NCBI GenBank assembly: GCA_000934665.2
Contig: KZ538166.1
Span: 62,001 to 109,582 of the forward strand
Direction of reading: 5' to 3'
Length of the DNA: 47,582 nucleotides
Source: Catajapyx aquilonaris
Lineage: Eukaryota
The notes beneath the pieces are model-generated. The model did no database searches and was not told the origin of the DNA. It saw only the letters and a list, made by a program, of their open reading frames with translations. Positions 6,001 through 47,489 of this stretch are shown here, piece by piece. Position 1 is the first letter of the stretch; every line of letters begins with the position of its first letter. A program made the position numbers and the translations under genes.

Positions 6001-9000
6001 TCTTTTTCAATCCGGATCTCGTACGCTACCAGTACATAAGATAAACCCTGGCCATGTTGTAGCGACGCCTTTATGAGCAACAGACGGATTGGTCAAGTTT
6101 ACGCCCTTATAAAAACACGCAGGCACGTGGAAGGCAAGAGCTGGAGAAAAAGGTATTTTCTTCCTCGCTCTCAGGTAGACCACCAATCATGTAACGAGCA
6201 ACTGCCGGGTAAGCCGTCAAAGGGCAAAAATGGTGACAGGCCGAACGCCCTTTTTGTCGAGCCCGAGTAATAAGAAAAGAATGGTCAGTTCGCCTTTGGA
6301 GTTTCAGAGAAAGGGGCCGATCAATGTGCTTGTAAAGCACACGAGCAACAAGGTTGAGTCCAAGCCATAGGCTATAGAAGTATTTTTTGACTCTCTCCCC
6401 GTAGTTTCCAAGTGGCTCTTCCAGCGCAGATCGGGAGAGGCCGGTCAATGCAATGCTAACATTGGAGACCCCCAGCTTGTTCTTTGCGATATTACCTTTA
6501 TTTTGCAATGCTACTAGAGTAGAACCGGTTTTCATGTTCTGGACTCAATTTGCAGATTTAAGGAGGCAGGGCTTTTTTATCCCTTTTTTAAAGCGGATGG
6601 TTGATGCCGTTGTTTACCAGACGTGTACGGGCAGGTTCCTAATTTTTGATGACTTGATTGCACAATGGATGCAATTTATGTCTGCAAACGCTGCTGAACT
6701 AAGCTTCTTACAGCCTACCCCCCTGTGCAACTTATAATCAATTTATTACAAAAAAGTGCCAGTAAGAAGTTCGGTACTTGTAATTTGTCCGAGCTTTAAA
6801 AGCAATACATTATCGGCTTTTGGGCTGATGGATTCAATAGCTAATGTACAGTACATCTAAGTAATGCAGGACCGAACTCCGTCCCCCACATATACCCCCT
6901 TCCCGCTAACGTAATTTATGGATGTTCTGGTAGAGGAGTGGTTGTCATCAGATGGCCAATGCAGCAGGAATTTGTATCCGTTGCAATTGAATTGAACGGA
7001 CGTTACTTGGCAATCGTCTAGTTCGTTATCACATGCCAATGTTTGTGCCGAGGTTGTTATCACCAGACAGGAGCTCATTGGATTTGTGGAATGAGCTGGG
7101 AAATGTGCCTGAAGAGGAAAACGCTGGAAATGAGAATTGCTGGGGGTGGCTTTCCCGGCGAGTGTTTCCTCCGTATAATGAAAACGTCACGAGCTTTCCC
7201 TGTCGATGACGAACCAAGTCGGTAGGGGTACGGGGATGGGGGTGCCACATACCATCCTGCAAAAGCCTAATGAAACTCTGCACACAAAAAGTGGGCGTTA
7301 AAAGAAGCCCCCCTTTTTATCGCAAGGTCCATTAACCAATCCGACATATTTGCGACTAACTCTAGCTTTTTTTCAAGGCAGGGGGTCCCCTGTGGTCACG
7401 TGTTGAAAAATGTTTGGGAGGGTAATACCCGCGGCGAAACGGGCGGAAAATCTACTCGGAAAAGTCGACGCTAAGAATGGAGCGAGGTTGGTGGTCGAGG
7501 GTAGGGGAATAGCTGTCAGTCCAGGAGAGGCTGGCTAGAAAAACACTAAAACGGGGATTTCCCGGGGAAATCCCAGGGACGCCCGAAGTTGAAGCTGGCA
7601 AATTATTCGCCATAAAAGGTCAGATAAGATGGGAGCCGAACTGTCAACTCATCAGCTTGGATATTCAAAAATGTGGTGCGCAATATGATCTCGCATATGT
7701 TCAACTCATTCTGGGATGTTCCGCCATTTTCTATTCAAAAACCTGATTCAAATCAGGTCCAGTGGACGGTTCATTTGGAAAACGGAGAGGATTTGCATTC
7801 TTATGTTTCCTTGGTGCGGCACAAAAGGGGACTAATCGGTTTCATTTGTGGCGAAAATGCAATTTCTGTGACTCTTCCCACCTCCCTTCTCCCCCACCCA
7901 TCTCTTCTGCTGGAACAAGTCACGGCGTCTTTGAAAGGGGGCGCCTCACAGTTGTACTTTCCCAAAGAGTCGGAATGCTTCATGATTAGGTTCCTAATGC
8001 AGTTAGCAGATGAATCCGCATAGAAGGGGCCCAAAATGAATTTGCCTTTCAAATGATAAGGGGAAGCTGAGCGAATATTGAATGGCGTCGCCTCGTCGTT
8101 GCTACCCAGCTTTCTTAATCGAATGTGCCCGTGGCATTGGACACGAATTAATGTCTGCCAAGTGACAAATAATCCGTCTTGTTGACGACGAAGGGAATCA
8201 GATTGCGTTGCCTCCGGCGGGCTGGGTAGCGATTCCGCAAAATGTAGGAAATAATCCTGGGGATATATTGGAAAGGAAATGAGCGCCTTCCTTTTTCCCG
8301 AGCTGTGTAACAATCTCATAGCGCTGGGGATGTGTGCAGCTTCATTGCGTGAATATTTCAGGCCTTTCTCTCCCTTTCGCATCAGCTGCAGGTAAAACGT
8401 GCAGGGGTAGGTCATATCCGGGGCTGTATTATATTAGGAGCCAAGCTCCGACTCTCTAGTTTCCATGAGCCTTTTTCGAATCTATCGGCAGCTGGTGCAA
8501 CCTGCTCCGAGAATACGGATCTAGAATCCCGCTTGCTTCTCTTTTCACAATAATGGCTGGGCAGATGAAAACGAGGCCTACGTTTTCAGGGATCGATGGC
8601 CTACTCAAGCCTTTAGGAATGACCATCTGGACCCGATTTGTTCACTTCCTCTTCGCAGCAGCAAGAAGGCATTGGGAAAGAAGGCTGAGATGCCGTGTGC
8701 TGCTGCACCACCCAAAGGCAATAATGCTTTGGCCATTAGGAATGTGGGCTTGGTTTTACGTGGATCAAATGTTAGCTGTTTCTCATTGCCTTTTTGTGGG
8801 CTGTGGGATGAATGGGTGGCTCTCAAAATTATCGGATATCAGTTGGTGATGTGGGGATGCTCCATGTGTCATGCGTCGCACCAGAAGCCTGTGCAGGTGG
8901 AAATGCTATCGATTTCATGATTCCGTCGGCAGATTTATGAATTCCTTACGGTATGCAATCAAAAACCAAATGATCAACGCGAATGTTTAATTTACTCAAA

Positions 9001-9450: not shown

Positions 9451-9617
9451 TTCGACCACTGAATGTGGAATTGAGCGGCCTGCAGGAGCGTTTGGTCCAG
9501 GGCGACACCGTCAACCTGCTGTGTCGTGTCGAAGGTGCTCGACCAGCTGCCAACATCACCTGGCTGAACGACTCTTCCCCTTGGCCCAATCACGCCAATT
9601 CTCACCTGGCAGTCCAG
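9451..9617 (+). CDS. nrm: Internal coding exon (phase 1 to phase 0), N-terminal half of an Ig domain of a neuromusculin-like Ig-superfamily adhesion protein
   Basis: Pyrimidine tract and TAG acceptor end at 9450; donor CAG|GTAAGC at 9617/9618. Reads (V)RPLNVELSGLQERLVQGDTVNLLCRVEGARPAANITWLNDSSPWPNHANSHLAVQ, with the Ig B-strand Cys and the GARPAANITW motif. The nrm name rests on my recall of insect neuromusculin (VRP...VQG..V.L.C...GARPA..LTWYN), not on a database search. Confidence 0.88.
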
Positions 9618-10895: not shown

Positions 10896-10952
10896 CGTTC
10901 CTGTCACCTTTGTTGCGGACATTTAATGTCCGCAACAACGGTGACAGGAACG
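10896..10952. repeat. 57-bp near-perfect palindrome (28-bp arms, one mismatch, 1-nt spacer)
   Basis: CGTTCCTGTCACCTTTGTTGCGGACATT-T-AATGTCCGCAACAACGGTGACAGGAACG. Confidence 0.95.
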
Positions 10953-12136
10953 CAAAATGGCGCACTTTTTCGAGATGCATATGTGTGTGCTTTTGTTCAT
11001 ACCGATTATAACCATAACTTTTAAACTTTTCAAGTTCCTAAAGAGGTTTTGTTATTATTTATGCTGTGTTACACATATCGGTAACAATGTAGTACATGCC
11101 TAGATTTCAGTTGATTGTATCAAGTATGTAGCTCAACTTTAACGGTATTACGCATTCACTTTCAGCGGGTCGTAAGCTAACATGTTATCACATAGTGTGT
11201 CACGGGGCATTGATTTTTGTGGTCTGAATTGCGTTCGTCTGGAAACCCTGGTGCTCGACAAGCTCCAAAATTTGTCATACTGCCTAGGACAAGAATTGAA
11301 ACAGGACCATTGTCCTCCCCCAACGATCATGCGGTGCACTGGCAAGCCTGGAAAAAAAAAGAGAATAGCCTTCCCAATACAGTGCCAGAGAGAAGCATTG
11401 ATAGCTTCCTATCTGTACAATACTAGCCTCATACAATAGATATCCGCAGAATGTAAGTGAACAGCTGCGAACTGATCCAGCGTATTTGTCCAAATGATTG
11501 CGCCAGGCGGCCGGCCTAAAACGTGGCAGAGACAAGCCCTACCTCCCCCGCCTCCCCCACATTTCAGACCATTGGATCGTTCCACACCGGGGAATCCCCC
11601 CGTGGCGGCCAATTCCCATTGCCGAATCCGTTGTGCCGACAATATGCTGCCTTTCCGTCTCAGTGGCCTTAACTAGTGAGTAGGAAAATACTAGAAGGGG
11701 ATTCGATGCTGGGGCACGGTTGACTGCCGGAACCTCTCGCATTTGGGACTTTAGCGGATTGGGTGACGGCCAACGCGACTGGGACCTCTTTTTTTGACTA
11801 TCCAACGATTAACCTGTTGTGTCAAGTCGTGCATACCTGGTTGAGAGCCAAAGAGAATACGGAAAAAGGGAGTGCTCTTCCATCCCTCACGGTACACATC
11901 GCAGAAGCACAATGGGGTTGGGCAGCGACAAATAGTTACTTGTATTTGTGCAGAGAGAGGCATAACTTGAAATATTGTTTGTAGTAGCTAAGTACAGTGA
12001 TGATAATCCTATAGTTGTCTAAAGTGTTCTTTCAGTGTTGGGATTTTAAATGACGAAATAATGCGATTAAAATAGGGAAGCAAAATAATATTGCCATTAA
12101 CCTGACTTATACGATATAGCCTCTCTAAAAGATAAT

Positions 12137-12182: not shown

Positions 12183-12216
12183 GAATTGTGATAAATATAT
12201 ATTTTTATCACAATTC
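12183..12216. repeat. Inverted repeat, 13-bp perfect arms with 8-nt AT spacer
   Basis: GAATTGTGATAAA-TATATATT-TTTATCACAATTC. Confidence 0.85.
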
Positions 12217-14130: not shown

Positions 14131-14167
14131 AATAACAATAAATAATAATAATAATAATAATAATAAC

Positions 14168-14234
<67 letters not shown>
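14131..14234 (+). repeat. (AAT)n microsatellite with rare AAC interruptions
   Basis: Directly visible; accounts for the poly-N and poly-Y ORFs in the track. Confidence 0.98.
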
Positions 14235-14421: not shown

Positions 14422-14505
14422 TTTTGACCCTAAGCTGCTTACTAGTAAGTACGTAGTTACTTTCAAAGGTTTAGCTGTTATCAATAATATTGTGCCTTTG
14501 ACTTA

Positions 14506-14670
14506 GGCCGGGTTACTTATACACCGGCTCCCGGAAAATTTGTCTGGCCGAAGAAGAAGCAGGATAGTTTGTTATTCATTGTTGACAGAATTGTTGACAA
14601 AAATGAATAACAACCGAATCGGGCTCTTCTTTGGCCAGACAAATTTTCCGGGAGCCAGTGCAACCCGGCC
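14506..14670. mobile_element. PIF/Harbinger (Tourist-like) foldback MITE, 165 bp, TTA target duplication
   Basis: TTA at 14503-14505 and 14671-14673; ends GGCCGGGTT...AACCCGGCC. Arms share GGCTCCCGGAAAATTTGTCTGGCC and TTGTTATTCATT in inverted orientation. Confidence 0.82.
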
Positions 14671-17600
14671 TTAGAGAGTCATTGTAGTTCTACCGTCCGC
14701 GGTACCTAAGCCGAAAAATGGACACTTTGAGAATGCACCTTAGTCTAGTGTTGTCAACTTGACTCGAGCACAACACACTATCGCGTCTACTAGCATTTTT
14801 AGTTTATTTACTTCAGAAAATGTGCGAGTGGTGGACTTTTGCTATTGCCTTACGGTTGCCCAGTCCACCACAGTTCCCACTCGGTAATCGCGTGCACAAC
14901 CCGGTGTTTGTAAAACCGGCTCTACTGTGCAATACTGGTGCACACAAGCGCAGCGTAACGAAAGCGAAAGTGTGTAAACAAGTGGTCGTGGACTTTCAAC
15001 TATACAAAGCAGCTCGACCGTGACAATGGTGGTGGTATAGGTGTGGAAACTGCTCCGGATACAGTTCATCAAGGAGCCTGTTTTTACATGTCCACTTCTT
15101 GCAGATAATATAAATGAGGCGCCTTAACTCCTTAAGCGTGAAAGGTATAGCAGTCATCCGTACTGGCTTGTTCCTGATGTCTTTATATAGGTGGTTTTTG
15201 CTGGCCATCTAATCCGCTGAACAATGCCCCTGTCGATATCAGACCGTCTACATGGCATGTTCTTGATTGACATTTGTAGGTTAGGTTGAGAAATGAAAAT
15301 ACCCTTGCTTCATAACTTGAACTGCCAAAAATTACATGGAGTAGTAGTTCTATGGTATGCATTGGCCCCTTTCACTGCCAAGAAAAGGGAAGAACTTGAG
15401 GAAGCACTTGTTACACACTTCAAGACGGCGAGATAATGCCCCAAGTGAATAATTGATAATGCTACTAAAAGGTCGATAGAGCAGAATGAGGCTGAACTCC
15501 CGGGAATTTTTAAGCTGCCAACATTGTCACAGAATCCTGCAGGTTTGGCATAAAAAAACATATTACAGTAGGTCTACTTGTAGATTATGGAAAGTATTTT
15601 CTGTCACATTTGCTTAATAAATGGATGCTATGACTAAGCAACGTGCATGTAAATAATATTAACCGAGTGAGGAATACGAATTGGGTCCATAAGATAATAT
15701 GAACGTTTGTGCAAGTTGCAGGGAATACAATAATTTTTTAATCATTACAAATGAATTTTAAATGCGGGATAGTTGTCTCAGCTAAGCGAATATGTATTAT
15801 TATAATTATCATTAATTATTATTAGTTACATTTTAAGTAGGATTTAACATGGCATATGGGAGCTGTTTCTGGCACTGTTGAATTCAGGACATTAAAGTGA
15901 GCATACAACCCTTTTGTATATATTACGCTTTGCAATAACTAAATTGCATCGCTCCTTGAAAGACCCGCAGCTGTTTCACCTTGCCTGTAATGCAGCACTT
16001 GCAAGCTCACAACGCTGCAGGGAATTAAAACAGACTCGGAACAATACCTGTAAAATGTCAACACCTTCCTGAAAAGTGTGACCCAGAATATGACGAGACA
16101 TACTTTGTCCGTAACAGCACCGATATCACGAGGAAGGCGTGTATATGAGCCGAACAACCCAATTGCACATTTATGTGTGCTCTATAGCCTCCGGGAACAC
16201 GCCTTTACAATAGCCATGCTGAGAGTCAACTGTCCCCTAAATGTCTACCCATGTATACGGCAGTAAAATGTAACCAACCCGAGATGGCAATCTTGGCGCA
16301 GATATCGCACGAGTCATGTGTATTGGGTGAAATATTATTGCGAAACGACTCGCCAATTGAGCTCGTAAAGAAGGCTCGACCAGGTACGGAATAAGTTCAG
16401 CATGCATGTCCAGTGACAATAACCGTCGTCGATAAAGGGAGGTCATTCCCGTTCCATTAGCCCTTAGGACAGCATAATGTCCATTCTAGGTGAGTCCGAA
16501 CTATACTCTTTATATACCTGTGAACACACACACCCACATATGATACACACAGCAAAGTTGGCTGAAATCTTGCGCACCATGTTCGCCTGTGACATGTTGC
16601 ATGGATTTTCTGTAATTCTCTGACACATGAAAAGAGGTGGTGAGTGCCAAAGTAATCCCGGTTTGCACAAGCGGACGTGCTTTATGTGGCCGATCCCCTT
16701 TTGTCACATGGAGCAATTACCGGCTCTTTTCACGTGAGATACTGCCAGAGGCTCCGGTTTGGACGCGCTGCTGGAGTTGAGGGTGGGACATGGGGTAGGG
16801 CTGAGAGGGGAGGGACGTTTCACCGAACGGCAAGCTAGCTTTTATTGCAATTGGCAAAACGCGCCACCGTGAAACCTTTCCGATTAAGAGGGATTTGCAT
16901 GAGTCGAGGGGGTGCATCAAGGGGTGAGTCAACTCGCTGGGGGGTGGAGGGAGACACAAAAGACCGGACTCAACCCCCCTCTTAAAATCCCTCCACTCAA
17001 CGGAAATAGTCCATGAATTCGATCGGAATCAAGGTCTACGTTTGTGATTGACACTTCTTTTTTGTCGGAAGAAAGAGAGGAGATGGGCCAGGTTGTAACG
17101 TAATCAGCGCGGTTTTACGGTCTGCAATTTGCCAAAATATGGGAGGAATGCCGATAATAACCTCTAGGTTATGCAACTGGTGTAATTGCTAGAGGCGAAA
17201 CTGCTCTCGGTTGAGAAACGTAATGGTGCATTTTCGTCTCTGGCCGATTGTCTACAGTTTAGACAATAAAACTAGGCCTGAGCACTCCCGAAGACATTGC
17301 GGCTGCAATGCAATCAACTACAATATCTGCGGAATTACAACATGTCCCCATCTGCAGTGGGGTCCCCATTGCAGGTCGTCACTGATTGGACCAGGAAACC
17401 TGGAGTGAGAGAAATTAGCATAATTTTACATATTGCGTCATAGGTGCCAAAAAAGTGTCGCATTTCGAGTATTTAGGAGAGTTGCGAAAGTCTTTGAAAC
17501 CCTCGGAAGGTGCTCATTGTGCATTTAATTCTAGGGGGCTCCCAAAGTATTGCTCTGGACTTTCTACATTGCAAAAAGAGTTTTGAGACAATGCAATATC

Positions 17601-17755
17601 CCTGAATTGCGACCAGTTAACTACGTGCTGCTCTCATTAGCTGCACCATAAATATCCTGGAAATTAGGATACACCCCCCTTTTGCAGCCGGCAACAAGGT
17701 CTTTTGTGCTGACAATTTTCTTCTTTTCTTCTTGCTCCCCTCTTTATGGACGCAG

Positions 17756-17788
17756 CAGCAGCAGCCACCTATATCCTCTGTGCATGAG
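17756..17788 (+). CDS. nrm: Candidate alternative microexon (33 nt, QQQPPISSVHE; 30/27/24 nt with downstream CAG acceptors)
   Basis: CTGAC branch point at 17709-17713, AG-free pyrimidine tract, (CAG)4 at 17753-17764, donor GAG|GTAAGT at 17788/17789. Phase 0-0 with no stop, matching the host intron. Confidence 0.65.
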
Positions 17789-18027
17789 GTAAGTCTCCGT
17801 GTGTGTACTGTACGTGTGTCGTTGCATGCGTGTCAGTTTTTCATTGCACAACCAATAGAACTCATATTAGATGTTTGACACAATATAACAATAAAGTGAG
17901 AACCACATCAGCAGTCGTGTAGACGTTTATTCTGGTTTTGTGATATTTGACATGAATTATTGCCAATTGATTCACTGTCGACACGACCACTTCTGTATTA
18001 TTACATAATATTTACGGGCATGGTATA

Positions 18028-18355
18028 CAGGGTGTTTCAACTTTTTGTCCGAACAGTTATCGGAAAATTGCACGTAGCTGCTACTTTGTAAGCAGTGACT
18101 TGCAACCGGTGATTTGTCGGAGGAATGGGGCATGGGGAAAAAGAGGGTCACACATCCCATGGCATGTGTGACCCTCTTTTTTCCAGGCTTGGCCTTCAAT
18201 TTTCAGCGGGCAGCACGTATGCCACTTCAACCTACGATTGGCAGGGAATATTCCCCGTTCCTCCGAAAAATCACCGTTTGCAAGTCACTGCTTACAAAGT
18301 AGCAGCTACGTGCAATTTTTCTATAACTGTTCGGACAAAAAGTTGAATCATCCTG
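18028..18355. mobile_element. Tc1/mariner-like MITE, 328 bp, about 103-bp TIRs
   Basis: Left arm 18028-18130 (CAGGGTGTTTCAACTTTTTGTCCGAACAGTTAT...) pairs with right arm 18253-18355 (...ATAACTGTTCGGACAAAAAGTTGAATCATCCTG). TA on the left, CA (decayed TA) on the right. No coding capacity. Confidence 0.85.
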
Positions 18356-21300
18356 CATACTGTTTCATCCCTCCACTGCATATTTGGCCTGAAGGCATCT
18401 GAAAATAAGATAAAACCATGTAGTCTACTCAACTATTGGCAAGCTCCTTTTTGTTCCATCATCTTCCGGAAGAAGGAGGATGCAGACTTGTAATCGAAAG
18501 ATAGTTGCCTTAATTCTGAAAGGCTGGCTGGGAAATGAATATTGGCAGCAACGAAATGGGCTATCTAGGAAGCTGATCAGTAAGGTTGTAACGAAGAAAA
18601 TAAGGCAGTGCTGGTGTGTGGAGATGGGTTGCTATCTTTAAACCTCATTGGTGCGTGAAGTTGAGTGCCTAGGATGTCAAATTCAGTTTCGAGGGCTTAC
18701 CAATTTGACCCCAAGTCTCGGGACTGAATCTATTTACAAGCGTTCGATATATTGGCAAGGTATTTCTGATCTTACGATTTTCCATCGGAAAAGCAGAAGC
18801 CGTATGAAGCAGTGCCACCTGCTGAAGTAGGTCACACTTGAAAATATCCGTGGATAGAATTGCAGAGACACTATAACATCCCAGGCTGGACAAGAGAAGT
18901 TATTGTTAGGTCTTTCTCCTTCATGCTGGCGTCACGTTGAGAACAAAGCGGGTCGTAAATAGATAAGGAAGCCCTTGGTTACAGCGTGAGAACAATGATC
19001 ACTCTTTTTTTACGAAGCTTTGTCCCCTAGGCCCTCTTTGGTCAACCGGAGACTATTGATAGAAATGGCGGCAGATAAACTGCAGGGATTCCTATGGTCG
19101 AAGTGGCAAAGGCCACAGGGGTTTCCCAACTGTGCTCATGGACACACTGACGTGAAATGGCCTTTCAAAGAAGCCTCTCTTGCAATCGCTGACGCACAGG
19201 GCATTGTTCCGACCAGGGGAAAAAATAAATATAATTCGCTCAGATCCGATTACCTGTCGCTATCACAACCAACCATGTACGCTTTTATGCCGCTATTTTT
19301 ACCACCAAAACTGGCATTTAAATGTGTGGATTTTCCGTGTCAAAATTTTAGGTGGCTATATGTGAGAATTACATCTGGAATCTTGGACTCAACACGGAGC
19401 GCCCATGGTTATGACTTTGTTACATAACATGGGAACACCGATACTTTCCTATATGGGGTCACTAACAGGGATGAAATAGCTCTTCCGTAAATCTTCAAAT
19501 GATTTATGGCTGTGAAATTACGCGGCAAATTGGAAGGCGCACATCCTGATGGCAGGCTGTCGATGCCCTCCTCGCAAATAGTAAACCTATATACGCGAGA
19601 GTACAGTGTGATGGAGTGTGATGTTAAGGCAACGAAATGCACACATTATCCTGAATAGTTCGATATACTCATTAGGACACAAATGCTTGAGTACGTCCTT
19701 TTCCGACGGGACCGCTTTTGAAAATCGCGAGGATTAATTTCGTATGCCGTGCTGCAGGACAATCAGTTTTGGGGAGAGTGAATTATTATAGATAGATAAT
19801 TGAATCATTCAAAGATAAACGTGGCAATTTAGTTGGCGCGCTTGTAATAGATGCTGCTGTGATTAGACCATATCGCGCGTTGTTTGACTCGTGAAACACA
19901 CGTTTACCAAGCGATTCAGGTTGTATCGAGGAAAATGTTGCGCAACTCTCGACTCTGCATACAATTTGACGTGAATTACCAATGGAACGGAAGCTTTTTG
20001 TGGCCTTTATTAGACAAATTCCGACTGTGGCGTAATAATTTGCACCAGACATGCACCGAGAGAGCCGGCATTTTCACGCCCATTGTCAGTCAATGCCCCC
20101 TCTCCTCCACCTCCCTCCCTAGTCCCTCTAGTCTCTTCGAAAGGATTAATGACATCATGGAATTTATGGTGAGGAAAATTTGTCGATTCGTTAGGTCCGA
20201 CACACGCCATTTAACACCCGGATTTAATTATGTCAGGCAGTTTAAATCACCAATAAATATTGGTGTGGACCTAATCGATGCTTTGAAGTAGTAATAACCT
20301 GGTTCAAAAAAAAATTAACTACCCCCTCCCCCCTCCACTTCTCTCTCTCTCTCTTTTTGAGGAAAATGACCGTGGCGGTCAAACATGCCAATCGTGTAAG
20401 TGCGCAGGGCGAAAACACGATTATCCCCGATTGGATGCCCGGTTTGAGAATGCAAATGAATGTAGGTATGAATCGTTGATTATGGAGCAAACTGCACGGC
20501 AAAAGTCCCAAACTCCCACCGCAAACCAGCAGATTGACTCGTCAGTTAGTGTTGCGGGGGAAAGGGGGGGGGGACATGGATGGGGGATGCAAAATGTGTC
20601 CGTTTAATCGAAGCAGAAAGTCGTCTCGATTCATCGCCCTCCAAAAGAGGTCCACTTCTATACTGTACACGTGCTACAAGTGCTCATTTTCGCGCCAACC
20701 GAATCATGTGACGCCCCAATGTTACTAATTGCCTAGCAGAAATTCGTTCCCATAATTCGCTTCCAAAATTGATGGTCCATGGGGCCCTCAAAAAAAGGAT
20801 GGAGAATAATAATACGTAATGTTAATAGAAAGGGGTGTATACCCTGCTTGTATAAACTGGGCATTGGGCAGTGAGTATCCCAGCGGGCGTTTGTTCGCGA
20901 CGCTATGCGTAGCTTCCAGAAGAAAGGGCATTTTCGAGCGGACGACCGCATTGAAAACGCAAATAGACTTGAGCTAATGGAGCGCGGAAATGAAGGGAGA
21001 ATGGAAGCAGGCGTGTACAGCAATTTCACGGCGGACAACCTGCGAAATCTGCCAGGAGCCACGTACGGTTTCATTAATGCCGGTCTCCATCATAATGTTC
21101 CCAGAGCGACGCTTTATTGCGTTACAGCATCATCGTCTTCAAACCGCTATCGGCGTCAGCAAGACTCGCAACAACGGGGCTTGGAAGTGCCAACCGCATG
21201 TGATGCTGGCTTAAAAATCCAATTAATTTCCACTGTTACAAGCCATCAACTGAAGGTTAGCTTTATTTATGTTGGTGTATAGAGACAGAAAGGAGCGGTA

Positions 21301-21759
21301 GGTTGGTCGGTGGTAAAGGAAATTTCTACAGCAAGCTTTTTGTGATCATGTGTTTCGGAGTAAAAGGGCTTTGTGTGCAAGGTGTAAGTTTATTACTTGC
21401 ACCTGCTTTGTGACAGGCATTGCTTTGATTTTTCTGAAACAGCAATGACGGGGTACGTCCTTTACAGTCAATTGGCTGATCCAGTACGTAGTTGGACCAT
21501 TGTGTCATCGGATTTATGTGACCCCTAGGCTATGGTAGGTTCTGATTAACATCCATAAGCAGATTTTTTGCAACAAAGCAAGCCCAAAGAGGTGTAATGA
21601 TGCAACCGAATGCAATTGTACTTCAATCGACAATCAGTGACAGTGCATGTGAATAATATTACCTTTACAATTTGGGGGAAATGGAATAGAGATGTGTAAG
21701 TGAAACCCACAGAAAGGACGGTGGTATTACATCAACCCGAGGGACTCTCTGTAATATTA

Positions 21760-21870
21760 CAGGGTGTTCCAAATTCGTGGGTCGTAATTATAACTGATAT
21801 AGCCCTGATATAACTACTATCGGGCGATATCAGTCATAAAAAAAACGCCCCACGAATTTGGAACACCCTG
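21760..21870. mobile_element. Tc1/mariner-like foldback MITE, 111 bp, TA target duplication
   Basis: Perfect 22-bp TIR CAGGGTGTTCCAAATTCGTGGG / CCCACGAATTTGGAACACCCTG, TA on both sides; the interior is also self-complementary. Confidence 0.88.
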
Positions 21871-23539
21871 TATATGGTAGCGAGAGCATTTCTGATTCAC
21901 TAAGTCAATACGCGGATTTTCCACGAAATAAGTGAGTAAAGGCTACCTGTGAAAACAGTTATCTCAATCTCATTTTCAAGGATTAAATTCTAATAATGCT
22001 ACACGAACTACACGACTGATGTATGACTGGATATTAAGTCGAACTTTTATTTTATTTATTGGGGCTTACGGAAGGCGACAACCTTGTTCATACTGCAAGC
22101 CGGACTTGGGTATTGATATCACGGAGAGCAAGAATTTGCTAGACGCTATTAACCAACCTTAATATACGTATCAGTCTGGCGCTGTACATGATGTGAAACG
22201 TCGCGAAAAGTGTGATTTTGCCAGTGTGTAAAAACATTTTGGGGCGTCGCAGTTTGACGTGGCAGGTTAGGCCTGTGTGTCAAGCTGCCTTTCTTCATAA
22301 ATTATGCATGGGTACCCGCAGTGCCTTTGTCATATCTTTGCATCAAGCAGCTCCTTTGCATTAAAAGTCCATAAAACATATCGCGTAGAAACCCGTAATA
22401 AATAAACATCAGCTCCTTCCAAACTCGTCTCCTTCGCCGTCTTTCATTTTCGCGCTTCTGCCACTTTCATTACCGTTGTCTTCTTGGAAATAGCAGACCG
22501 TAAACTCTAATGTCTTCCACTTTTATTTTGCTCAGAAACATGTCCCCTTTCCATACGAAAGAGCTATAAAAAGTTACGCACAGGATACAAAATGCACGTG
22601 AACCGTTCTTAAGCATGTAGATTTATTCTTGCCGCCCTACATTTTCACGTTCAAACTTCTCTCTTTTTGGAAGGCTTGATTAGGTATTAAGGAATTTGGG
22701 CTAATCTGCGAACCTGTAAGGGAGTCTTTGTGCAAAAAGAATGCCTAAGCTTGGCACGAGGCTGGGAAAAAAATAGACGGCCATTTATTAATCATCCATC
22801 AGTAGCCTACGTCATCAGCAGCTCTGAGAAGTTGAAGACTTTCTTGCATCTCATTTCCATCATGATTCCATTCCAGTCATTGGGGCTGCCCTCATGTAGT
22901 CGGAACTTGTACCATTCCCCCCTCCCCCCCCCCCATCGAATTTTCAATACGAAATTAGTTTTCTGACTTTCTGCCAATCCTCGACTCCATAAAAAATAAG
23001 ACGGGGAGAAGGAAGGGGTCGTTTCATGGCGACAATAATCATAATCAGGTGACTCGAAGGGAGGGGAAAAGTCGTCAGGAAAGCCAGAATTTATATTTTC
23101 CGCCGGAAATTTAAAAATATTGGCCACGAAATAGTTTATTGGCTCATCCGAAATTATTGCTGACTCAATTTGAGAAGGCTTGTGCTTGTTCTGAAAGTTT
23201 TCCTTTTCCCCTCCCCTTTTCCTAATTAAGCCGGCGGTTTGGTCGATTAATAAAAGTGCAAAAGTGCGAACTCTGGGCGCCACACATTATTTTCCCTCTA
23301 ATCTGATAAAATTCGTTACTGTCCCGAAAAGTTCGTGCCGTGCCAATACACTCGTATCTTATTCTCGAGTTGGGGCCTGCTGAGACCGGAATATTGGCCA
23401 ATGTCTGCGAAAAGCGATTTAGAAACCCGTTATTTGTCTCCCCGTGCTATCGTGCAGAATAATCTCGTTTGGGCGGCGACCTTTGGGTCATTTTGATTGA
23501 ATCACGAACTGCACGAAAATGACACGTCTTCAAACAACT

Positions 23540-23631
23540 CCCCCTGCACCCCCTTGCACCCCTTGGACCCCTTGCACCCCCTTGCTCCCCCTTGCTCCCC
23601 CTTGCTCCCCCTGCTCCCCCTTGCTCCCCCC
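23540..23631 (+). repeat. C-rich minisatellite, about 9 copies of C4-5-TTGC(A/T)
   Basis: Directly visible 9-10 bp tandem units; the opposite strand has regular G4-5 runs. Confidence 0.95.
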
Positions 23632-26600
23632 GAGTACCTTACACGTTCGGAGCAGTGACATCTGTCGTTTCGCCAACTCATCCTCACTCGAAATTGCCAT
23701 CGCAAGACACACCACTTCCACTATTAATGATGATAAATCGACCTGTTTTTTTTTGTTCTTGTACATCCCTCATCTAAAATTGTGCCAACTTTTACCACAA
23801 AAAAGAAAGAATAGAGAAACCCTCACTCAATGCGGGGTGTCTTGACGACAGCTCCTTCATCATTCATTCAACAGGGGCCGGGTAAATTCCCTAACCCTTC
23901 CTCCTCCTCCCTACTGCCCACACTTTCCTCAAAGTTAAATAGGCTTATCTGGTGTCTGGCGCCGAAAGAAGAAATTATCACTCTTCCAGTGGGTTAAGAC
24001 TTGCTCCCTGGTGCTATCAAACTTTCTTGGAATATTGAGGGAAAGGCATCCCAGACGGTAGAGCTCCCTGTTTAATTAGGCATTTGACGAGACAGTGGAA
24101 GAGGAGGAGGTGGTGGTTGTGGGGGAAGGAAGAGGGAGGCTTTACCCCTGAGAGAGAGTTACCCTTTAACCTTGTTAAGAAGCAACGTGCCCTTGCATCG
24201 CTAGCTTCTAGTCTGGTGATTAATAGTTCAGCTCTATGCGGAGTCGGCTTCGCCTTGCCACAGGGAGTAAAATAAACATGGGTCTAGCGGATAAATCAAG
24301 GCTGGCACACATACAAGGGGGGGACGGGGGGNNNNNNNNNNNNNNNNNNNNGGGGGGGGGGAGGATATTATTTAGATGAGTTAGGATGTAACGTTTGATA
24401 TGACGGGTGTGATGAAATGCGCGTTTATATATCCCCCCGCCCCCCCTGCTTTGATTTGATTTTAGTTCATATGTCAATCTCGCGGTGTGTTATTATTGTT
24501 CCTGATATTATTGTTGGAATTGTAACTGTTTTTGCTTCAAATTTATGAGTGCAGATGTGTCAAATTGTGCGAGGTATTGGCACGCCGGGCAGGTGAATTC
24601 ACCGCTTTGCAGATGTAGTATGCGTACAAATATTGGACATGCAGAGTGTTCTAATAAAAATGCCCGTATTGACGTTTTTGGCACGAAGCTGCTTATTTTA
24701 GTAGTTACTTTTCTGGTTATGAAAGTTATTACCTTCTAATGTTATACTGAATTAAAACATTTATCTACGTTCTGAATTGCTATGAACTTTCTAAAGTAGA
24801 ATTGCCCTTTGTAACACCGAATACCGAACACTTAATGTCAATACAGAAATAGAAACGATTTTTTTCCAGCCAGACCTCATTTACAAGCGTTAAAAATAAC
24901 GGATCCGTGCAACCTGATATTATCTCTAAATACTTTGCCCTACAAACGTAACACATATTCAAAAGTAACCGCTTCAAAATAAACAGGTTAGCGCCAAAAA
25001 TGTGCTAACTAAGACTTAGTTTTAAAGTATTAATTACTTCCTAGAGAATGTGGTCATGTTACTCGTGTGCTTTTTGAAGTAATGGAATTAATTTATGGCT
25101 GGATTGCAACAGTTTGCTACGAAAAAGGCAAAAACCATGCAGAATTATTAGCGTTCTGCCGCATTAAAACATGTACGAACGTAAGCCAACCTCAAGTATA
25201 ATTATGTGAAAAATCTCTAAAATGATCCTAAATAAAGTAGGTTCAGTGGCCACTAAAAACTTATTTGCTGATCAATTTGAAATAATTGTGCTTGTAAAAA
25301 TATCGGCTTTATTATCAAAGTGCAAATCAATAGCTTACATCGTTTCGGAAATGTTAATAACTAATTACTATTAGTAATATATTAATTGCAACCAGAAAAT
25401 AATGGAATGTAGCTTTGCTGTTGAAGGACAAAATGGCTTGCTTTGAAATCAAGATTTTATCGAGAGGCTGCATTATTACTAGCATTATATGTGGAAGTCT
25501 CATCATGATTTTTTTCCAAGCTCTAATGGGAAACAACTCTAATGTAAACAGCGTGGGTATTGTTGCTGATCCATGGCAGCGGCAAGCTGTTATTCAAACC
25601 ATATTCCCACCAAATTCACTGTATTCACTGTGTATATGTTGCCGAGAGAGCACAACAAGGGCGTCTTGTTGCCCCTGCCACGCGAACCGATCAGACGAGT
25701 GCTAGGACCACAGTATTAATGAAGGAGGTGGGAAATATGAAAGCCATGATGGTTGCTGCAGTCCGTTAACCCAAAGAACGACACTTCGTCAAGCAACGGT
25801 GAAGGCATTCGAATTTGGCTGGCAGCAGTATCAAGGCACCCGATTGTTTGTGACGCAATATTGCCAACCGTCGCGTTGGGAGGCCCGCCCGCCATACCCC
25901 GACCGCTTTGTTAAGGTGCGGATAAACAATAGTTTATCCAAAATAATTATTACGGATTGCTTACTTTAGCACCAGTTTTATAGAGAACAACTTGTTGCAG
26001 CAACACTCAGGGAAATATCAATTTGTCGTGAATATTTCTTCGCTTGAAACTCGTTTCTGGGTTTAAAATCCACAAGTTCTTTCCTTAGCATTTTAATCTT
26101 GAACTGGGGCTTGGCCACGTCCTGTATAATGTAACTGAGGCTATCCTCAATGAGGACAGATATTCCGGAATCACAAATTAAAGTGGATCTCGTGAAGACT
26201 GTAGCCCCATTTATGAGTAAGAAATGCATCAATATTAAATGGTATTCAAATCTCATGAATAGAGTTTTAAAAATATAATAGTTCAAAGTGGCCCGAAAAA
26301 TCCCGAAAAGGTCTGGTAAAGAAAGATGCCAATATACTGTATAGTATAGGTACTAAAATCGTGATGTGATCGTATGTATAGGCTCTGTAAAACCTATAAT
26401 TTGGCCCTGAATTAACTGGCTAGCTGTGTTGACGTTTTCATACTAACCAGGAACCCTAACAAGGAACAAACAAGGATGAGGGCCTCTAAAAATGGAATCT
26501 CTACATGTGACATTGTGCTATTGGCTATCTTCTCGCTGTAAAATGAAGTATAAGTATAATTCTATATATACGCCACTCTGCACGAAAGTGAGGAAATAGG

Positions 26601-29912: not shown

Positions 29913-31148
29913 ACGGGTGAACACTATTGATTAGAGATGTGAGGATAAAATAGGTCCATTTTCCTATACATGTGCATCAAACTTATTTTTCTCCATATTT
30001 GATGCCATTGCATGTTGCTTTTGCCTTTTCATGTTTGCTTTATCCAGATGGATGAAATGCAGCGCATTTTGCATGCATGCTCTGTATACATGAGTTGTCC
30101 TTTTCCCTCCAAAATGGGTAAGCTCCATAGAAACGGACTGTTTCCCTGCATATTATAACAATTTAGCAGATTTTGCATATTTACCAGAGGTAATAGAGGC
30201 CACCACTAACCAGTGAAAAAATTTAAAATGTGTGATAGATATGTGCATATTTTATGTTCGCTTGCTCTTATATGATTGGGTAGTGCATTTTACTTTGAAG
30301 GACTAGCGCACGGGCCTTCATCATTTACCAAGTGTAATTTGGGAAGGGGGAAGGTTCCAATATATTTTCTTTTGGTACTAGACAGAGAAGGGAATTAAGT
30401 CTGCACAGCCATGTTGGTAGAAAAGAGGAAGAGGCAAGACCGTGGGCCAGACTAAACTAAGGTGGACTGTGAGCAACATAAATTATTCTACATACAAGCT
30501 TGTTAATTAAGCTACATACACCATGTCTAGTACTTCACGACAAACTGACACGTTCTTTCGTACATCCTGCGAATTCCACTACCTGCTGCACATGTGGCGC
30601 AGGTAGTGGCACTCACAGGATAGGAAATAGTGTTCGCCGATAGTACAGCACACATCTGACGGAGTGAGATCATCATAAGGGTACAGAGTCTTACATCGAC
30701 ATCTCTAGAAAATGAAGGAAAAATATGCATTATTGGGCCCCGTCCTCAAGACTCGTCAGGATCCACCTCTTGAACAGTCCTTTGACAACATGGGGGTTCT
30801 TGATAGGGTTGATTTTGCTGGAGAATGTACACATCCTTCCATCTTGTCACAACCTGGAACCGAAAATGCATCGGAGGCGACAGCTTTTACTCTCAAGAAG
30901 AGAAGCGCACTATCTTAGTGGCAAAGATAGCTGGAGACGCGTGTCAGCCTGAAGACCCCCTCCCTCCCCCTGCCCCCCCTTCCTTAGTCCCCGCCTGCTC
31001 CGCTCTACATAAATCTCACGTGTTCTGACACCATAATGGAGTGGTAATGTTGGAGGCAATCTCATTTCTGCAGGTGGCCTCTCCCACTTCATCATCCTAA
31101 ATTACGCGTTAAAAATAATTTACTTACACTAATCTGTTGTGTTCCCAG

Positions 31149-31299
31149 ACTGACGGCACTTACGAGACGCAGAGTCGACTCACGTTCAACGTGACCCGCT
31201 TCGAGAACAGGCAGACCATCGCATGCGAGGCGACCAATCAGGTGATGCGGGAGAGTGAAGAGGAGCCAATGAGGAGCTCCGTTACACTGACAGTGTTCT
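31149..31299 (+). CDS. nrm: Internal coding exon (phase 0 to phase 1), C-terminal half of the same Ig domain
   Basis: Branch-like CTAAT and TGTTGTGTTCCCAG acceptor end at 31148; donor T|GTGAGT at 31299/31300. The 151 nt read TDGTYETQSRLTFNVTRFENRQTIACEATNQVMRESEEEPMRSSVTLTVF, with the F-strand Cys. Phase matches the 9617 donor. Resembles recalled nrm DGT..TQS.L.F..TRFEN...CEA.N.V. Absent from the ORF track because it is short. Confidence 0.9.
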
Positions 31300-37800: not shown

Positions 37801-40800
37801 ACTCAAGTTTGCAGCCAAAATGAGTTTCTTTTACCTAATTACGCGGGCCGGGGGTAGAGGAAGGGGGGGGGGGGGGGANNNNNNNNNNNNNNNNNNNNNN
37901 NNNNNNGGATGGGGGACCTGGGAAAAGTGGGGTAGGGCGGGGGGGGGATAGATGGGAAGGGGGAGTTGGGTATAGGGGTAGCGCGAACGACCTGAAATTC
38001 ACTCCCATTTACAGCGTGTTGGGGGTGCAACATGGCCTAACCCTTGCAGCCGGAATTTTCGCAAGGCTTGTCTTTCTTGGCAAACCGAACGCTTTAGAGG
38101 GGGGGAAGGGCGGGAGTGTCCACACCACAGTTGGGGGGTTGCACCCAGCAAAAGGAAACATTTCGCACAGAGCCTTGGAATGTCTGCTGATATTGATTGG
38201 CGTGGTTGCAGTGGTTTCCACAGACGAGGGTTTCTCTTCCTGGCCAGTGATGCTCGATTCGTATTCGTTTTAATGAGGGGGTGAAGGGTAGGAGAGAAGG
38301 GAGCTTAGTTCCCCCCCCCCTCCTTCCCCCACTTCTCTCATTTCCCGATTTCCTGCTGCCAATTTCCAAGGCACAATGGCGTCTCGCTTCGCGGAAACTG
38401 GCCGGACATGAATGGTTCTCGAAAAATTGTACCTGCTACAAGGCACTTGATTAGCTCCGGCAAGATGAAATATGAACCGCAAATTAAATGCAATGAAGCT
38501 ATGGAAACTGAATTGACTGCACGTCTCATGATCCTCAATAGCTGGTTGCAAAATTCAATTTAACGTCACCATGAACATCTATGCACATTTAGGGTAGTCC
38601 AACAAGGAAGAACCTGGAAGAACCATTGCTTACTTAGTTGTTTGTGCTAAGCTTGAATAGTAGCAGTGCTTACAGTGCTCGGCATTTTTTTCTGAGCGTT
38701 ACATGAGATACATCTGCACGTACTGCTCAGTGCCCTGGAAAGAATATACTGTGTACATATCATGAATTGGGGAGTTTCCAGTATAGACGCGTCTATTATT
38801 TATGCTAGTACACAAGGTGCCGGTGACTCAGTATCTGCAGGAGGGGACATTTTTCAACCCGTACAGTGCACTCTAAGCAAAGCAAACATCACCCAAGTAG
38901 TGTAGCTTTTTTACATTACTCATGCAGAGATAGCGTAATGGTAGAGTAACGTGCCATGTTGTAAAAATGATGTCCTCCACCGTCTATCTGTAAGCGAACT
39001 ACTGCCGTGCCCTAATTTTCTCTCGTTTTTGCACTGATCTCTGCTACTGATGCAAGGCTTCAGTCAGAGTACTGTTTATGTACGAGGAAGCTGTCAGAGA
39101 GCTGTTTATTCACTATACAAACTGCAATCAAGTACCTACAGTATGTTTATAGGAAAGCTGTAATTATTTAACAACGCAAGTAGGCTATATATAATGCATG
39201 TGATGTACCGATACCGTTATAGAAACCGGTTTCGTTGTTAGTGAAACATTGCATTAAGGCACAAAAGATGCAGTGTACAGGCATCCTTATTATTTTAAGT
39301 ACAGTAAAAAGATTTTTGTTGAAAGTTGAAATGGCTTCTTGAGAGAGATCCTAAGGTTTTTCCTGGGCCAACAAAATGTTATTCTACATTCAAGAAATTC
39401 AACAAAACCCAGTTTAGATTACCATCAACTATACACCATTTAACTCCACTATCACTTACAGTAAAAACAAATGTTACATTCGCACTTGTCAGCGTCCAGG
39501 TCAGATCCAGGTCAAGATGACACTATTTTGCAAAATTACCTGGTGGTATATCAACACACACTGTATGAGATAGTCCTCTAAGTAATTCAGTGCCTTTCAT
39601 TCTGACATGTTCCTGTCCTATAGTTCTCGCAATATGGCCTCAGTTCCCTTTTTCCCTCCTATCATTTGGAACGCTCCTGTCAAGCACGCCTATATGCCTT
39701 GTGTAGGCAGCATACAATTCAGCTCATAGGACTGAAATTCATCACCACCAAACTCGCCTTGTTTTCCACAACTTTGCATTAGCGTTTGGAGGGAGTCGAT
39801 TGGCTGCAAACTAATCAACTACGGCCTCGCCCAAATTTACTCGCTCGGCGTACATTTTCATTTTGATTTATCGGTTATTCCCAAACCGGGACGTGGAAGA
39901 GAGGGGGGACATGCTTCCGACTGCGATAGAATACATAGCTTCGGATTCCAATTGTCTTTATGGACCAAAATTTTCCTCCAGTACTGAGTTTTGCTTTCAG
40001 TTTTTTTTTTACCTTCACTTTTCCTACTTGCCTGTGCAGTTCTAGGGTCGGTTAAAGGAAAAGGTCGAATCGTGGCTTGGCAGGGAGGGAATCTAGAGGA
40101 CGAATTATCATAATCGGCTCTAGACTGCATAATACAAGATATTTAAATCGATAATGAAAAGCAGGGTAGGGCTTGGAGGCCACCCCCGTCTTTCTGGATT
40201 AGGAGCTTTTCCCACTCTCTTCTTTTCCCTTTTTGCTAACCTGTCTTCCATTACTCCCACGCATTTTTATTTTATGACGAATAATTTTTTCAGTTACTTA
40301 TGCCCGAGCTTTTCGAGCGTAATATGCAAGTGCACGATGCCAGTACCTATGGGAGGAGGGGGAGGAATCGGAAATGATTTAGGAGAGAACGATCGATAGA
40401 TCTTATATATGCCGTGTTGGAGTATAGAGTAGCAAGCCACAAGATCGTTATCCAGCTCCCCCAAAAAATAACCTGTCAGAATTACCGGCCCTGCAGGAAG
40501 ACGACATCAACTTTGCAATCTCCTTCCTTTTCTTGCCCAGGCTCTTATATAGATAGCGAATAAATTCTCCATAAATACCATTTATAAGAAGAGCAGCCCT
40601 CCGAATAATCTGGAGATTTCATTCAGTAAAACGAATTTCGGAAAACCTTGCCAGAAGAGCGGGAGTGAAATGAGATTACATTATTTTTTTCCCCTTCCTC
40701 CTCCGTATTTTGGCCTAGAATCGTAATAACGCAGGTAATAAGGATGTGAGTGATATCTGAACCGAGTGCTCCCGTACACTCTCGGCTAATAACAATGATT

Positions 40801-44517: not shown

Positions 44518-44587
44518 GCTCCTGTGGCTCACTGGCGGAGCACGGGCATCTCTGCTCGAGGCCCGGGTTCGAATCCCGGCGGGGGCA
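44518..44587 (+). ncRNA. tRNA-like Pol III unit (tRNA pseudogene or tRNA-derived SINE head)
   Basis: Cloverleaf with acceptor GCTCCTG/CGGGGGC, D arm GCTC/GAGC, T arm CCGGG-TTCGAAT-CCCGG. A box TGGCTCACTGG at 44525-44535, B box GGTTCGAATCC at 44566-44576, TTTT at 44594-44597. The anticodon loop is only 6 nt (ATCTCT). Confidence 0.8.
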
Positions 44588-47489
44588 CCGACCTTTTACC
44601 TCCCACCTTGTTTCTCACTCCTCGTGTTCGTGCTAACTATAGGATTTCAATTAAAAGTGCAGTTGACTGCAAATGTAGCCTAATGATGCATCATACGGGG
44701 GTTTGCCACGTCATGGAAACCAAACTGGCATGCTTTTTGACGGACTCGATGACGTTCGTAATGGGGACAGTTTCAATTACAGTCATTAGGAAGGAGTGTT
44801 TCCCCGTGCAGGCGAATCATTTGAAAAATCACTATAGGTGTGTCTGAATAATGTCGCGGTTGCGTTGCTCTAGATGAACAATGCGTGATGTCAGTAATCA
44901 GTGGCACTGCTATACCGTGCGAATGTGAGGCGAGTCTATACCCTGCCTAAAAAAAAGGTCTCCAAGGGTCCTGACATGCCGGATGTCATACTAGTGTTAG
45001 CTCATTTTCTACCACCCCAGTGCACTGTAATCTCTAGTAAATTCAATTTCCCGCGATATTACATACTCCGACGAGAATTGATGTCAAGAACCTACATTTC
45101 ATGTGTATGATGAAGAATAAAAATACGCCTGCCCTTATCTATAGTGCACAAAGTAATAGTACAGACCACGTTATTTTAAAAGGCTGTTATAAATTACAAG
45201 TTGCAGGAAGGCTTCAATTTGACCAAAATAAGTGGTAATTACAATTGAAAATAAATGCTAAAACGAGCAATCTAATTAACGAGTCGGCAACACCATTACG
45301 ATTTTTTCGCACCAGTACGCAAAGTTGCTCGGGGAAATAATTGTGAGCAGAATAAGGGAATAGGGTAAATGCCGCGGTCAAGTCCGTGATTTCAATTTTT
45401 ACAGTATTTGTTTCATCCACGGAGATAATGGAATTTTGGCAACTCCTATGCCACCCCCACAGCTACACCCGACATTTTGAGGCAAATAGATTTATAGATT
45501 GACAACGTTCAGCGCTCAACACCACAAAAACTAGTTAGAGCTAAAAGTTGGTTGTTTCTACACTGTCGGTTGGTTATAGTCTCTCTCTGTCGCTCCCCCA
45601 CAAAATGCTCAGCTTTTGGCAGGTAAACCGAGCACGTAAAAATGAGGAGAAACATTACCGCATTCCGTTTAGCCAGACTGAACTATTTCGGTGGACTAGG
45701 TGACGGAACACTCCCCTCCCACTGTAATGACCCATTCCAGCAGAGTCTGCATTATGGAAACAGAGCGAGAGATGTTCTAAGAGTACATTGTAACCGCATC
45801 TCTGGGAACCGATGCCTCTCGCTTGTTTAGCCCGGATGACAACACCGCATGGGACAAATAATGCAGATGTTACGTCATTCATGGTGACTTGCCTCTGATG
45901 TGCATGTTTCACAGCAAATATGGCGATTCGGAGGTAAATTCCATTTTAATTGCCTTTCGCATGAACGGACAGCGAATCAGCAGAAATAAAGTGTTAAAGG
46001 TTGGCGCTTCTAAAAGTACGTTTTAAAAATTGAGTTATTTCCGCCTGCTCCTAGTTTATGGCACTGCATGCCATGTTGTGACACTACTGGTGTGCTGCAG
46101 AGACCCTGCTCTATTCGAGCGTAGACTCAAATTAGGCACATGCTTCACTCTATCATACATACACTCTGATCGGATAAAACCCATGCTAATTCCCCTACTT
46201 CCACATTGTGCCAAATTAGATGAGGGTTCCCAAATTCCAGAAGAAGAAAAAAAACCGGTCTGGACTTGCCAAGTTGACTAAGCACTCAATCTGAACGCCT
46301 CTTCCTCGGTGAAAAGTTATGGACTAGTAAGCCTTATCACGCAGGGGATTCTGAATAGGATCCGATGAGCCTTCCTCATTTGTGGGCACTCCCTCCTCCT
46401 CCCCTTACTTTTCCTTTCTTTTGGCTATCTAGAGAATTCATCCCATCTAGGACTCGGGCTTGAAAATTACCCGGGGCCTCATCACTCCAAGAGTGGCAAG
46501 CCGTGGATCATTGCGGTCATTACCGAAACATTTCCACTAGGCCTCATTTCCGACTTGGCACTATTCACTATGCCGGCAAAGCGTACCCCCCCCCCCCCNN
46601 NNNNNNNCCCTATCCAGCAGCCCCCTCCATTAGCATGGGAGGCGTTGATCCCCATGCAACGACCCCTACAGTCACTCAGAGTCGTAACCCCAATATAACC
46701 CCCACCACCCACTCTCAACCCTACTTCCACAGCCGCTCGCAATCACACGTCCTATTGACTTCCGCACTGGGAATGTGGATAGGAGCTTTTTTTCCTTTTT
46801 ATTTATAGTCTCTTGCTTTTAAACAGTAAATGATTCATATATGGTTGGTTTAATCAGCAGGGTTTTTTAGGTGTGGAGCTTGCGTATTTTCATGTTTTTT
46901 GCATTTTCTTATGTGCTATACTAAATCGGATGATGTACAAACAAAAAAAGGTGCAATATAGGTGCATGGACGGATCACGTGTGTTAATGAGGAATAAGCA
47001 GCTTATGTGTTCTGTAGTTTTGGTCTATTCACTGTGGTTTTGAAAAACTCTTTGTCAACAAATAAAGCGCTGGTACCAACACAGTTTAATATTTTAAAAA
47101 TGACGAAGCAGAAGCTGAACCGAGCCTTAGTAATGTTACAAAAGTGACGGATTTTACTAATGTAGCAATACGTCGCCACCATTACGTGTGGAAATGCAAT
47201 AAATAAGTTGGGTTCGTGTTGGCGCATATTAGGTAGCCGGTGGCAAGTTTCATCCCGCAGTTACAAACAACTATGGGGCTGTGTAGGGAAACAAATGGAA
47301 AAATAAAAAGTAGTCGAAGGATTATGCCAATACCATTGTCTCTTTTAGAGCACATTACATGTATACACAAGTAGCCTACTATTTTGGTGGTTACCCTTCC
47401 TAATTGCTCGTTCTCCCACGGTACAGTGTGCTGTGGGATATTCACAAAAATTAGCCAAAGTTCGTATTAGATGGAACAACACAGATATA

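Follow-up and report, generated by a model that had tools for sequence, protein, structure and literature searches.

Neuromusculin (nrm) is an Ig surface protein of neurons and muscle. Its knockdown is reported to misroute a sensory axon in the fly (bioRxiv 10.64898/2026.04.22.720075). In a supplementary table, Torres-Mendez et al. (2022; PMC8797185) list two microexons of Drosophila melanogaster nrm: DmeEX0008868, of 12 nt, is eMIC-dependent, and DmeEX0008867, of 9 nt, is eMIC-sensitive. As far as this table goes, the two eMIC-regulated exons place nrm in the Srrm234 program in a fly. The same paper gives the fly eMIC signature as a long stretch free of AG, a UGC close to the 3' splice site, an extended CU-rich tract, a strong CUAAY branch point, and weak splice sites. 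In published abstracts, microexons are defined as exons of ≤27 or ≤30 nt, limits that are straddled by the 24–33 nt of the exon described below. Another described system is the tandem acceptors, a class with spacings of 3, 6, or 9 nt; in NAGNAG acceptors, in-frame AGs lie 3 nt apart, and CAGCAG is the classic form (PMC2699507, PMC1669710, and PMC2279118).

Here, we analyze a stretch of 47,582 nucleotides (referred to as the window), which carries a candidate small exon at positions 17756–17788 of the forward strand, deep in a 21.5-kb intron of the putative nrm orthologue of Catajapyx aquilonaris. With a probability of roughly three in four, this site is a real, alternatively used small exon that is orthologous to one annotated in other arthropods.

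Host gene and Ig domain 3

The identity of the host gene had been proposed from the bare sequence, and homology bears it out: judged from its exons, the gene is an arthropod nrm orthologue. The translation of exon 2 (31149–31299) matched 80 proteins at E ≤ 0.001 in a search of 1.84 billion representative proteins, and the closest named matches were those of Rhodnius (65% identity) and Nezara (60%). Full-length matches named nrm, neuromusculin, or hemicentin-like came from Hetaerina, Macrosteles, Artemia, Darwinula, and several Diptera; the names nrm or neuromusculin are carried by full-length matches of Hetaerina, Lycorma, Bemisia, and Megaselia. In word-index protein searches, exon 2 gave no match among longer proteins, and the Darwinula orthologue recovered only itself.

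The window contains two coding exons of nrm and only these, as located by tblastn with eight orthologues. The upstream exon (9451–9617, + strand) encodes the first half of Ig domain 3 and ends with SHLAVQ in phase 0, on the evidence of the sequence, Pfam, and tblastn with the eight orthologues. The downstream exon (31149–31299, + strand), located by the same three kinds of evidence, encodes the second half, begins with TDGTYETQSRLTF, and ends in phase 1. The sequence-only reading had given the flanking junctions as 9617 and 31149; both stand, and the full extents of the flanking exons are set here. It was also right in placing the intron inside an Ig domain in phase 0: the flanking exons are the two halves of Ig domain 3, and the phase 0 of the intron at its edges (9617 and 31149) matches the phase 0-0 of the candidate exon. 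A single N is present at 9434 in the poly-C tract just ahead of the acceptor of exon 9451.

Both half-domain exons matched the CD80-like C2-set family of Pfam (C2-set_2, PF08205), with 21.8 and 21.7 bits against the curated cut-off of 21 bits. Residues 12–41 of the upstream exon correspond to profile positions 10–41, and residues 3–36 of the downstream exon correspond to positions 55–88. Because the 13 residues between the two matches span the 13 remaining profile positions, Ig domain 3 is complete without an insert.

Architecture of the candidate exon

When checked against the sequence, all motifs that had been listed for the cassette were found in place. The branch-point candidate CTGAC (17709–17713, + strand) starts 47 nt ahead of the first exon base. 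It fits YTNAY and differs from CUAAY, the fly consensus in PMC8797185. Together with the pyrimidine tract, it is contained in an AG-free zone of 55 nt that precedes the first acceptor (17699–17753, + strand), and the tract includes a TGC (17733–17735, + strand) at −23 relative to the first exon base. Four in-frame tandem acceptor candidates follow as (CAG)4, CAGCAGCAGCAG (17753–17764, + strand), and define exon starts at 17756, 17759, 17762, and 17765. The resulting exons are 24–33 nt long, and all have AG/GT borders, an open frame, and a length that is a multiple of 3. The longest form of the candidate exon (17756–17788, + strand) is 33 nt, open, and in phase 0-0, and would encode QQQPPISSVHE. 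The donor GTAAGT (17789–17794, + strand), which sets the exon end at 17788, makes up the full consensus with the preceding GAG. The sequence has TGCATG within the exon (17781–17786, + strand) and again downstream (17823–17828, + strand), at +35 from the donor, and a GT/UG-rich run was read 3' of the donor (17798–17834, + strand).

The upstream U/C tract, which had been described as AG-free and leading to the acceptors, is indeed AG-free but does not reach them, as the purine-rich ATGGACG intervenes before the first CAG. Counted by reading the sequence, 14 of the 20 bases ahead of the first CAG are pyrimidines. The usage of tandem acceptors drops with distance and with a purine-rich upstream context. 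The crude acceptor scores of CAG 1–4 were 2.9, 0.9, −3.1, and −7.1, respectively; the first is weak, and acceptors 3 and 4, which are preceded by CAG repeats, are poor. From the sequence, we infer that more than one CAG acceptor may be used.

Orthologous inserts in annotated isoforms

In three hemipterans (Macrosteles, Lycorma, and Bemisia), pairs of NCBI isoforms differ by an insert of 9–12 amino acids at the same junction. The clearest statement comes from Macrosteles quadrilineatus, in which RRLPKTKVFNT (33 nt) is the sole difference between XP_054282600.1 (X1, 1325 amino acids) and XP_054282602.1 (X3, 1314 amino acids). This insert is placed between STERQMQ and TDGTFDT, the homologue of the window junction between SHLAVQ and TDGTYET. 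In Lycorma delicatula neuromusculin, HKRVPNTTVIPN is present in X6 and X7, and X3 has no insert there; in Bemisia tabaci, TPKTRVIAT is present in X4, and nrm X2 has none there. The Lycorma X6/X3 and Bemisia X4/X2 pairs show additional differences elsewhere in the protein. In Periplaneta, X4 and X6 have APETRVVEA at this site, and a cockroach-like transcript (P0121) is without the insert.

The sequence-only reading knew of no description of such an exon for nrm. Because the orthologous insert is already contained in public gene models, those of the three hemipterans, the exon is not new as an annotation; by title or abstract, none of the papers listed for neuromusculin and splicing concerned the splicing of nrm. 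Since an alternative, frame-preserving small exon is annotated at the same junction elsewhere, the window cassette is very probably real.

A second search yielded 49 orthologues. The junction was inspected in 43 proteins, 37 of which were readable by pattern and 6 not. In the 37 readable orthologues, the distance from the W to the DGT falls mostly into two groups, of 17–21 and 23–30 residues. The distance in the window would be 19 residues with the exon skipped and 27–30 with the exon included, both inside the observed ranges. Many genomic-ORF matches show the identical acceptor position, with FQx directly followed by DGTYET. Two short genomic-ORF matches, both dipteran-like, show other arrangements: in P0064, the D-position segment runs straight on into the downstream half-exon, and in P0074, it is read through a short in-frame intron, indicating that the intron pattern around the D-position strand varies between lineages.

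The distribution of the two forms bears on whether the exon is alternative at all. Only the short form was present among the proteins read for Clastoptera, Darwinula, and Tetranychus, and only the long form among those of Homalodisca, Periplaneta, Bacillus, Chrysoperla, and Hetaerina; in Diptera, every protein read has the D-position segment of Ig3. The long-form species and the Diptera, together with the perfect consensus of the donor, would fit a real but constitutive exon, by which the 21.5-kb intron would be two introns of 8.1 and 13.4 kb with no skipped form. This possibility is considered quite unlikely: both forms occur in three species, the two flanking exons suffice to cover the C2-set_2 profile with no gap, and the acceptor is weak and far from the branch point, as in the regulated exons described in PMC8797185.

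Related loci in metagenomes

A metagenome scan with the domain alignment gave 18 loci. Four of them (L009, L014, L015, and L016) have an upstream exon of the same length (55 amino acids) that ends with LAVQ directly followed by gt, with 27–29 of the 55 residues identical to those of the window (28–29 in L009, L014, and L015). The three loci with enough downstream sequence, L009, L014, and L015, each contain one outlying in-phase cassette 1.4–3.2 kb after this exon. The cassette of L015 (9052–9084) is 33 nt, encodes HEYTIESEIIE, and has a splice score of 20.7, the next best in that locus being 8.0. That of L014 (12526–12558) is also 33 nt and encodes RELKTEFEVSE (splice score 15.4), and that of L009 (2208–2249) is 42 nt and encodes PAEGELNIEEEIIK (splice score 22.7). 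Each has a single main acceptor, and only the window has the (CAG)4 ladder. Since the downstream Ig half-exon was not found on the L009, L014, and L015 contigs, these cassettes are placed between the two Ig halves presumptively.

No convincing cassette was seen in the 0.7–3.9 kb of downstream sequence available for L004–L008 (cockroach- or blattodean-like) and L003 (damselfly- or odonate-like), and a metagenome scan with exon 2 of the window gave 555 pattern matches, none of which was confirmed. A cassette of 36 nt is common to L006 (548–583) and L008 (1142–1177), with flanks that are nearly the same in both and a splice score of 18.5–18.6. It is located ~4.4–4.6 kb upstream of the first-half exon of Ig3 on the strand of the gene and could be either a further small exon or a repeat that the two loci share.

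How unusual the cassette is

A loose census was made of sites with at least 75% pyrimidine over 30 nt, a YAG, an open frame of 9–60 nt in multiples of 3, and GTAAGT. The 47.6 kb of the window contained one such site on the + strand, which is the candidate, and one on the − strand, compared with ~0 in 200 shuffles of the intron; these criteria, as well as the splice-score thresholds, were fixed only after the candidate had been seen. A stricter first census missed the candidate because its pyrimidine tract is interrupted. All open phase 0-0 cassettes of 21–39 nt between AG and GT on the + strand of the intron, 310 in number, were then ranked by a crude splice score that uses generic frequencies and no trained model. 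The candidate ranked first with 14.8, and the next unrelated cassette scored 10.8; its donor score (11.9) was also the top among the 310. The background scan covered 286,178 bases of strand from the window and the related loci, with the near-duplicates L004, L005, L007, L011, and L013 excluded. Eight donor sites scored at least 14, of which four are the candidate and its three presumed orthologues. The other four indicate that comparable cassettes occur elsewhere too.

Within the window, (CAG)4 occurs once, counting both strands, and the + strand has two copies of AGGTAAGT. Because TGCATG has 21 copies on the + strand, a density of 0.44 per kb, its presence twice in 48 nt represents a local excess. 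With regard to a repeat or mobile element, no second copy of the cassette was found within the window. As for a non-coding RNA or stable fold, Rfam gave no match at E ≤ 1 for 17000–18600, and the fold z-score was −1.17. Pfam assigned no family to the 85-amino-acid frame running through the cassette.

The encoded peptide was compared with those of the orthologues. Against eight insect cores (P-x-T-K/R-V-h), PPISSVHE ranked 49th among the 14,395 8-mers of the + strand of the intron, and the candidate ranked third among the 310 cassettes with splice borders. Scored with a profile built from 21 orthologous domains, the form of 33 nt ranked second of 218. It gained 10.4 bits relative to the skipped form, compared with 4.7 bits for the median cassette, and its fit was reached by 5 of 300 shuffles of its residues. 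By a hand calculation, the candidate has little in common with the acidic inserts found in L009, L014, and L015 apart from the [IV]-x-E end. Taken alone, the peptide match of the candidate appears weak. Two better peptide matches were rejected: LPRTRIET (11280–11303) has no in-frame acceptor, and PPGTRLYN (16188–16211) reaches its first in-frame donor only after 75 nt.

These results also weigh on the chance that the site is a pseudo-exon, in which the spliceosome ignores good-looking signals around an open frame. Long introns contain many decoy sites, and the comparable cassette on the − strand, the four further strong ones in the wider scan, the weak acceptor, and the modest rank of the bare peptide match are all in keeping with such a site. 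However, the candidate leads the 310 cassettes in splice score and comes close to the top in profile fit. Its size and phase are those of the orthologous exon, and it is located in the same intron where relatives carry that exon; we regard a pseudo-exon as unlikely. A decaying relic of the ancestral exon, no longer used in this lineage, with its frame and sites surviving by chance or because the loss was recent, is highly improbable. The peptide has diverged greatly from the insect type (P-x-T-K/R-V) as well as from the acidic type, and a (CAG)4 repeat has grown at the 5' end of the exon, as might happen in a relic, but neither the frame nor the consensus donor nor the AG-free zone has been disrupted.

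Structural consequence

AlphaFold models of the long and short forms of Macrosteles were built on a 21-row alignment, and the structural reading comes from this one distant orthologue. In the long form (pLDDT 88.0), KTKVFN of the insert forms a strand at 61–66, and the preceding TERQM has a pLDDT of <50. In the short form (pLDDT 90.9), STERQM forms a strand at 50–55. In these models, the insert takes the strand between C' and E, and the displaced strand joins a longer loop. We take this strand to be D from general Ig topology, not from strand pairings. The insert had been expected in a loop between the C and D strands; in the Macrosteles models, it is more than a loop and forms the D-position strand itself.

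The best matches of the modeled domain in a Foldseek search were Rst D1–D2 (4OF8), Necl-4, nectins, and SYG-1/SYG-2, with E values from 1.6e-07 to ~1e-05 and TM scores of 0.68–0.77. We know of no alternative D-strand exon in Rst, SYG-1/SYG-2, nectin, or Necl proteins.

Here, we propose how the exon may act, taking 17756–17788 as this gene's version of an ancient arthropod neuromusculin exon that is small and keeps the frame. The exon would sit in the phase-0 intron between the two halves of Ig domain 3 and would be alternatively included in at least some relatives. If the strand exchange of the Macrosteles models carries over to the window, SHLAVQ, the last residues of the upstream exon, would form the D-position strand when the exon is skipped. 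When it is included, approximately ISSVHE (after PP) would occupy the D position in place of SHLAVQ, and the former strand, together with 0–3 glutamines, would be shifted into a longer C'–D loop. Such an exchange would alter one edge of the sheet of Ig domain 3. By exchanging one edge strand, a conserved small exon could be a compact means of changing binding partners between tissues, and the locus offers a testable case of strand exchange through a tiny exon. A small exon in a 21.5-kb intron is easily missed by gene finders. For annotation, the present case argues for an additional exon in the gene model.

Possible regulation

We infer that the exon is spliced in C. aquilonaris and that its inclusion may be alternative and tissue-regulated. 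Next to the fly eMIC signature, the window shows 55 nt free of AG, a TGC at −23, and a weak acceptor; its branch-point candidate is CTGAC, its donor is strong, and CTCTCT is absent. Among the related cassettes, L015 has an upstream TGC at −34 and L014 has two, at −17 and −5, whereas L009 has none. A downstream TGCATG is found in one of the three, L015, at +63; L014 and L009 lack it within +300. Control of the candidate by Srrm234, Rbfox, and CELF is thus far a proposal drawn from motifs.

Isoform differences were also seen at other sites of nrm. Two isoforms of D. subpulchrella (P0042 and P0088) differ by ENI (9 nt) at around residue 150, and two of Hermetia (P0079 and P0106) have GTRQI versus V (12 nt) at around residue 1202. 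From the match in size to the supplementary-table entries, these differences may correspond to DmeEX0008867 and DmeEX0008868, respectively.

A more far-reaching proposal combines a pan-arthropod D-strand exchange exon with a four-step CAG ladder gained in this lineage. Under Srrm234 and Rbfox control, neurons or muscle would make the skipped form and up to four C'–D loop variants that differ by single glutamines. We regard this combination as a long shot; if true, the four-step ladder would be a graded adhesion dial on one Ig domain.

Other features of the window

A second strong cassette-like site lies at 8386–8406 (+ strand) in the intron upstream of exon 9451, in which CTGCAGGTAAAACGTGCAGGG (21 nt) is preceded by cag and followed by gtaggt. 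Its crude splice score is 18.2, and it is open in the phase-1 frame of its intron (AGKTCR). The orthologue pairs that were compared showed no difference between isoforms at the Ig2/Ig3 boundary. An inverted repeat at 18023–18360, which begins 235 nt downstream of the cassette, has arms ~92% alike (111 nt) and a central 50-nt palindrome and resembles a miniature transposon. Smaller palindromes are located at 10896–10952, 12183–12216, 14502–14674, 21758–21872, and 30564–30621. ARAGORN found a tRNA-like sequence at 44518–44589 (+ strand) with the anticodon undetermined, and the surrounding six-frame translations resemble a tRNA-derived repeat. The window further contains an (AAT)34 microsatellite (14131–14234), 9.7 copies of a CTCCCCCTTG repeat (23538–23630), and runs of N at 24332–24351, 37879–37906, and 46599–46607.

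Comparison with known systems

The microexons of Drosophila nrm, as listed in the supplementary table, share with the candidate the gene and the nature of tiny, frame-preserving exons, the fly ones being neural, but they appear at other positions in nrm. The NAGNAG class shares the in-frame AGs 3 nt apart at the acceptor. In the window, however, four CAGs stand in a row on a very small candidate exon, as candidate acceptors. IRM/nephrin-type Ig domains (Rst D1–D2, SYG-1/SYG-2, and the nectin and Necl ectodomains) resemble the modeled nrm domain in structure, whereas the sequence identity is 14–25%. The closest system is the nrm insert of the hemipterans (27–36 nt), the exons of which are compared here as predicted gene models. 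The peptides are weakly alike between the hemipterans and the window, and (CAG)n acceptors are not inferable from the protein alone. Both share the gene, the phase-0 junction between Q and x-DGT[YF]xT, and the preserved frame; a P-x-[ST]-x-V core is loosely common to the hemipterans and the window, and the Macrosteles insert, at 33 nt, has the very size of the window candidate.
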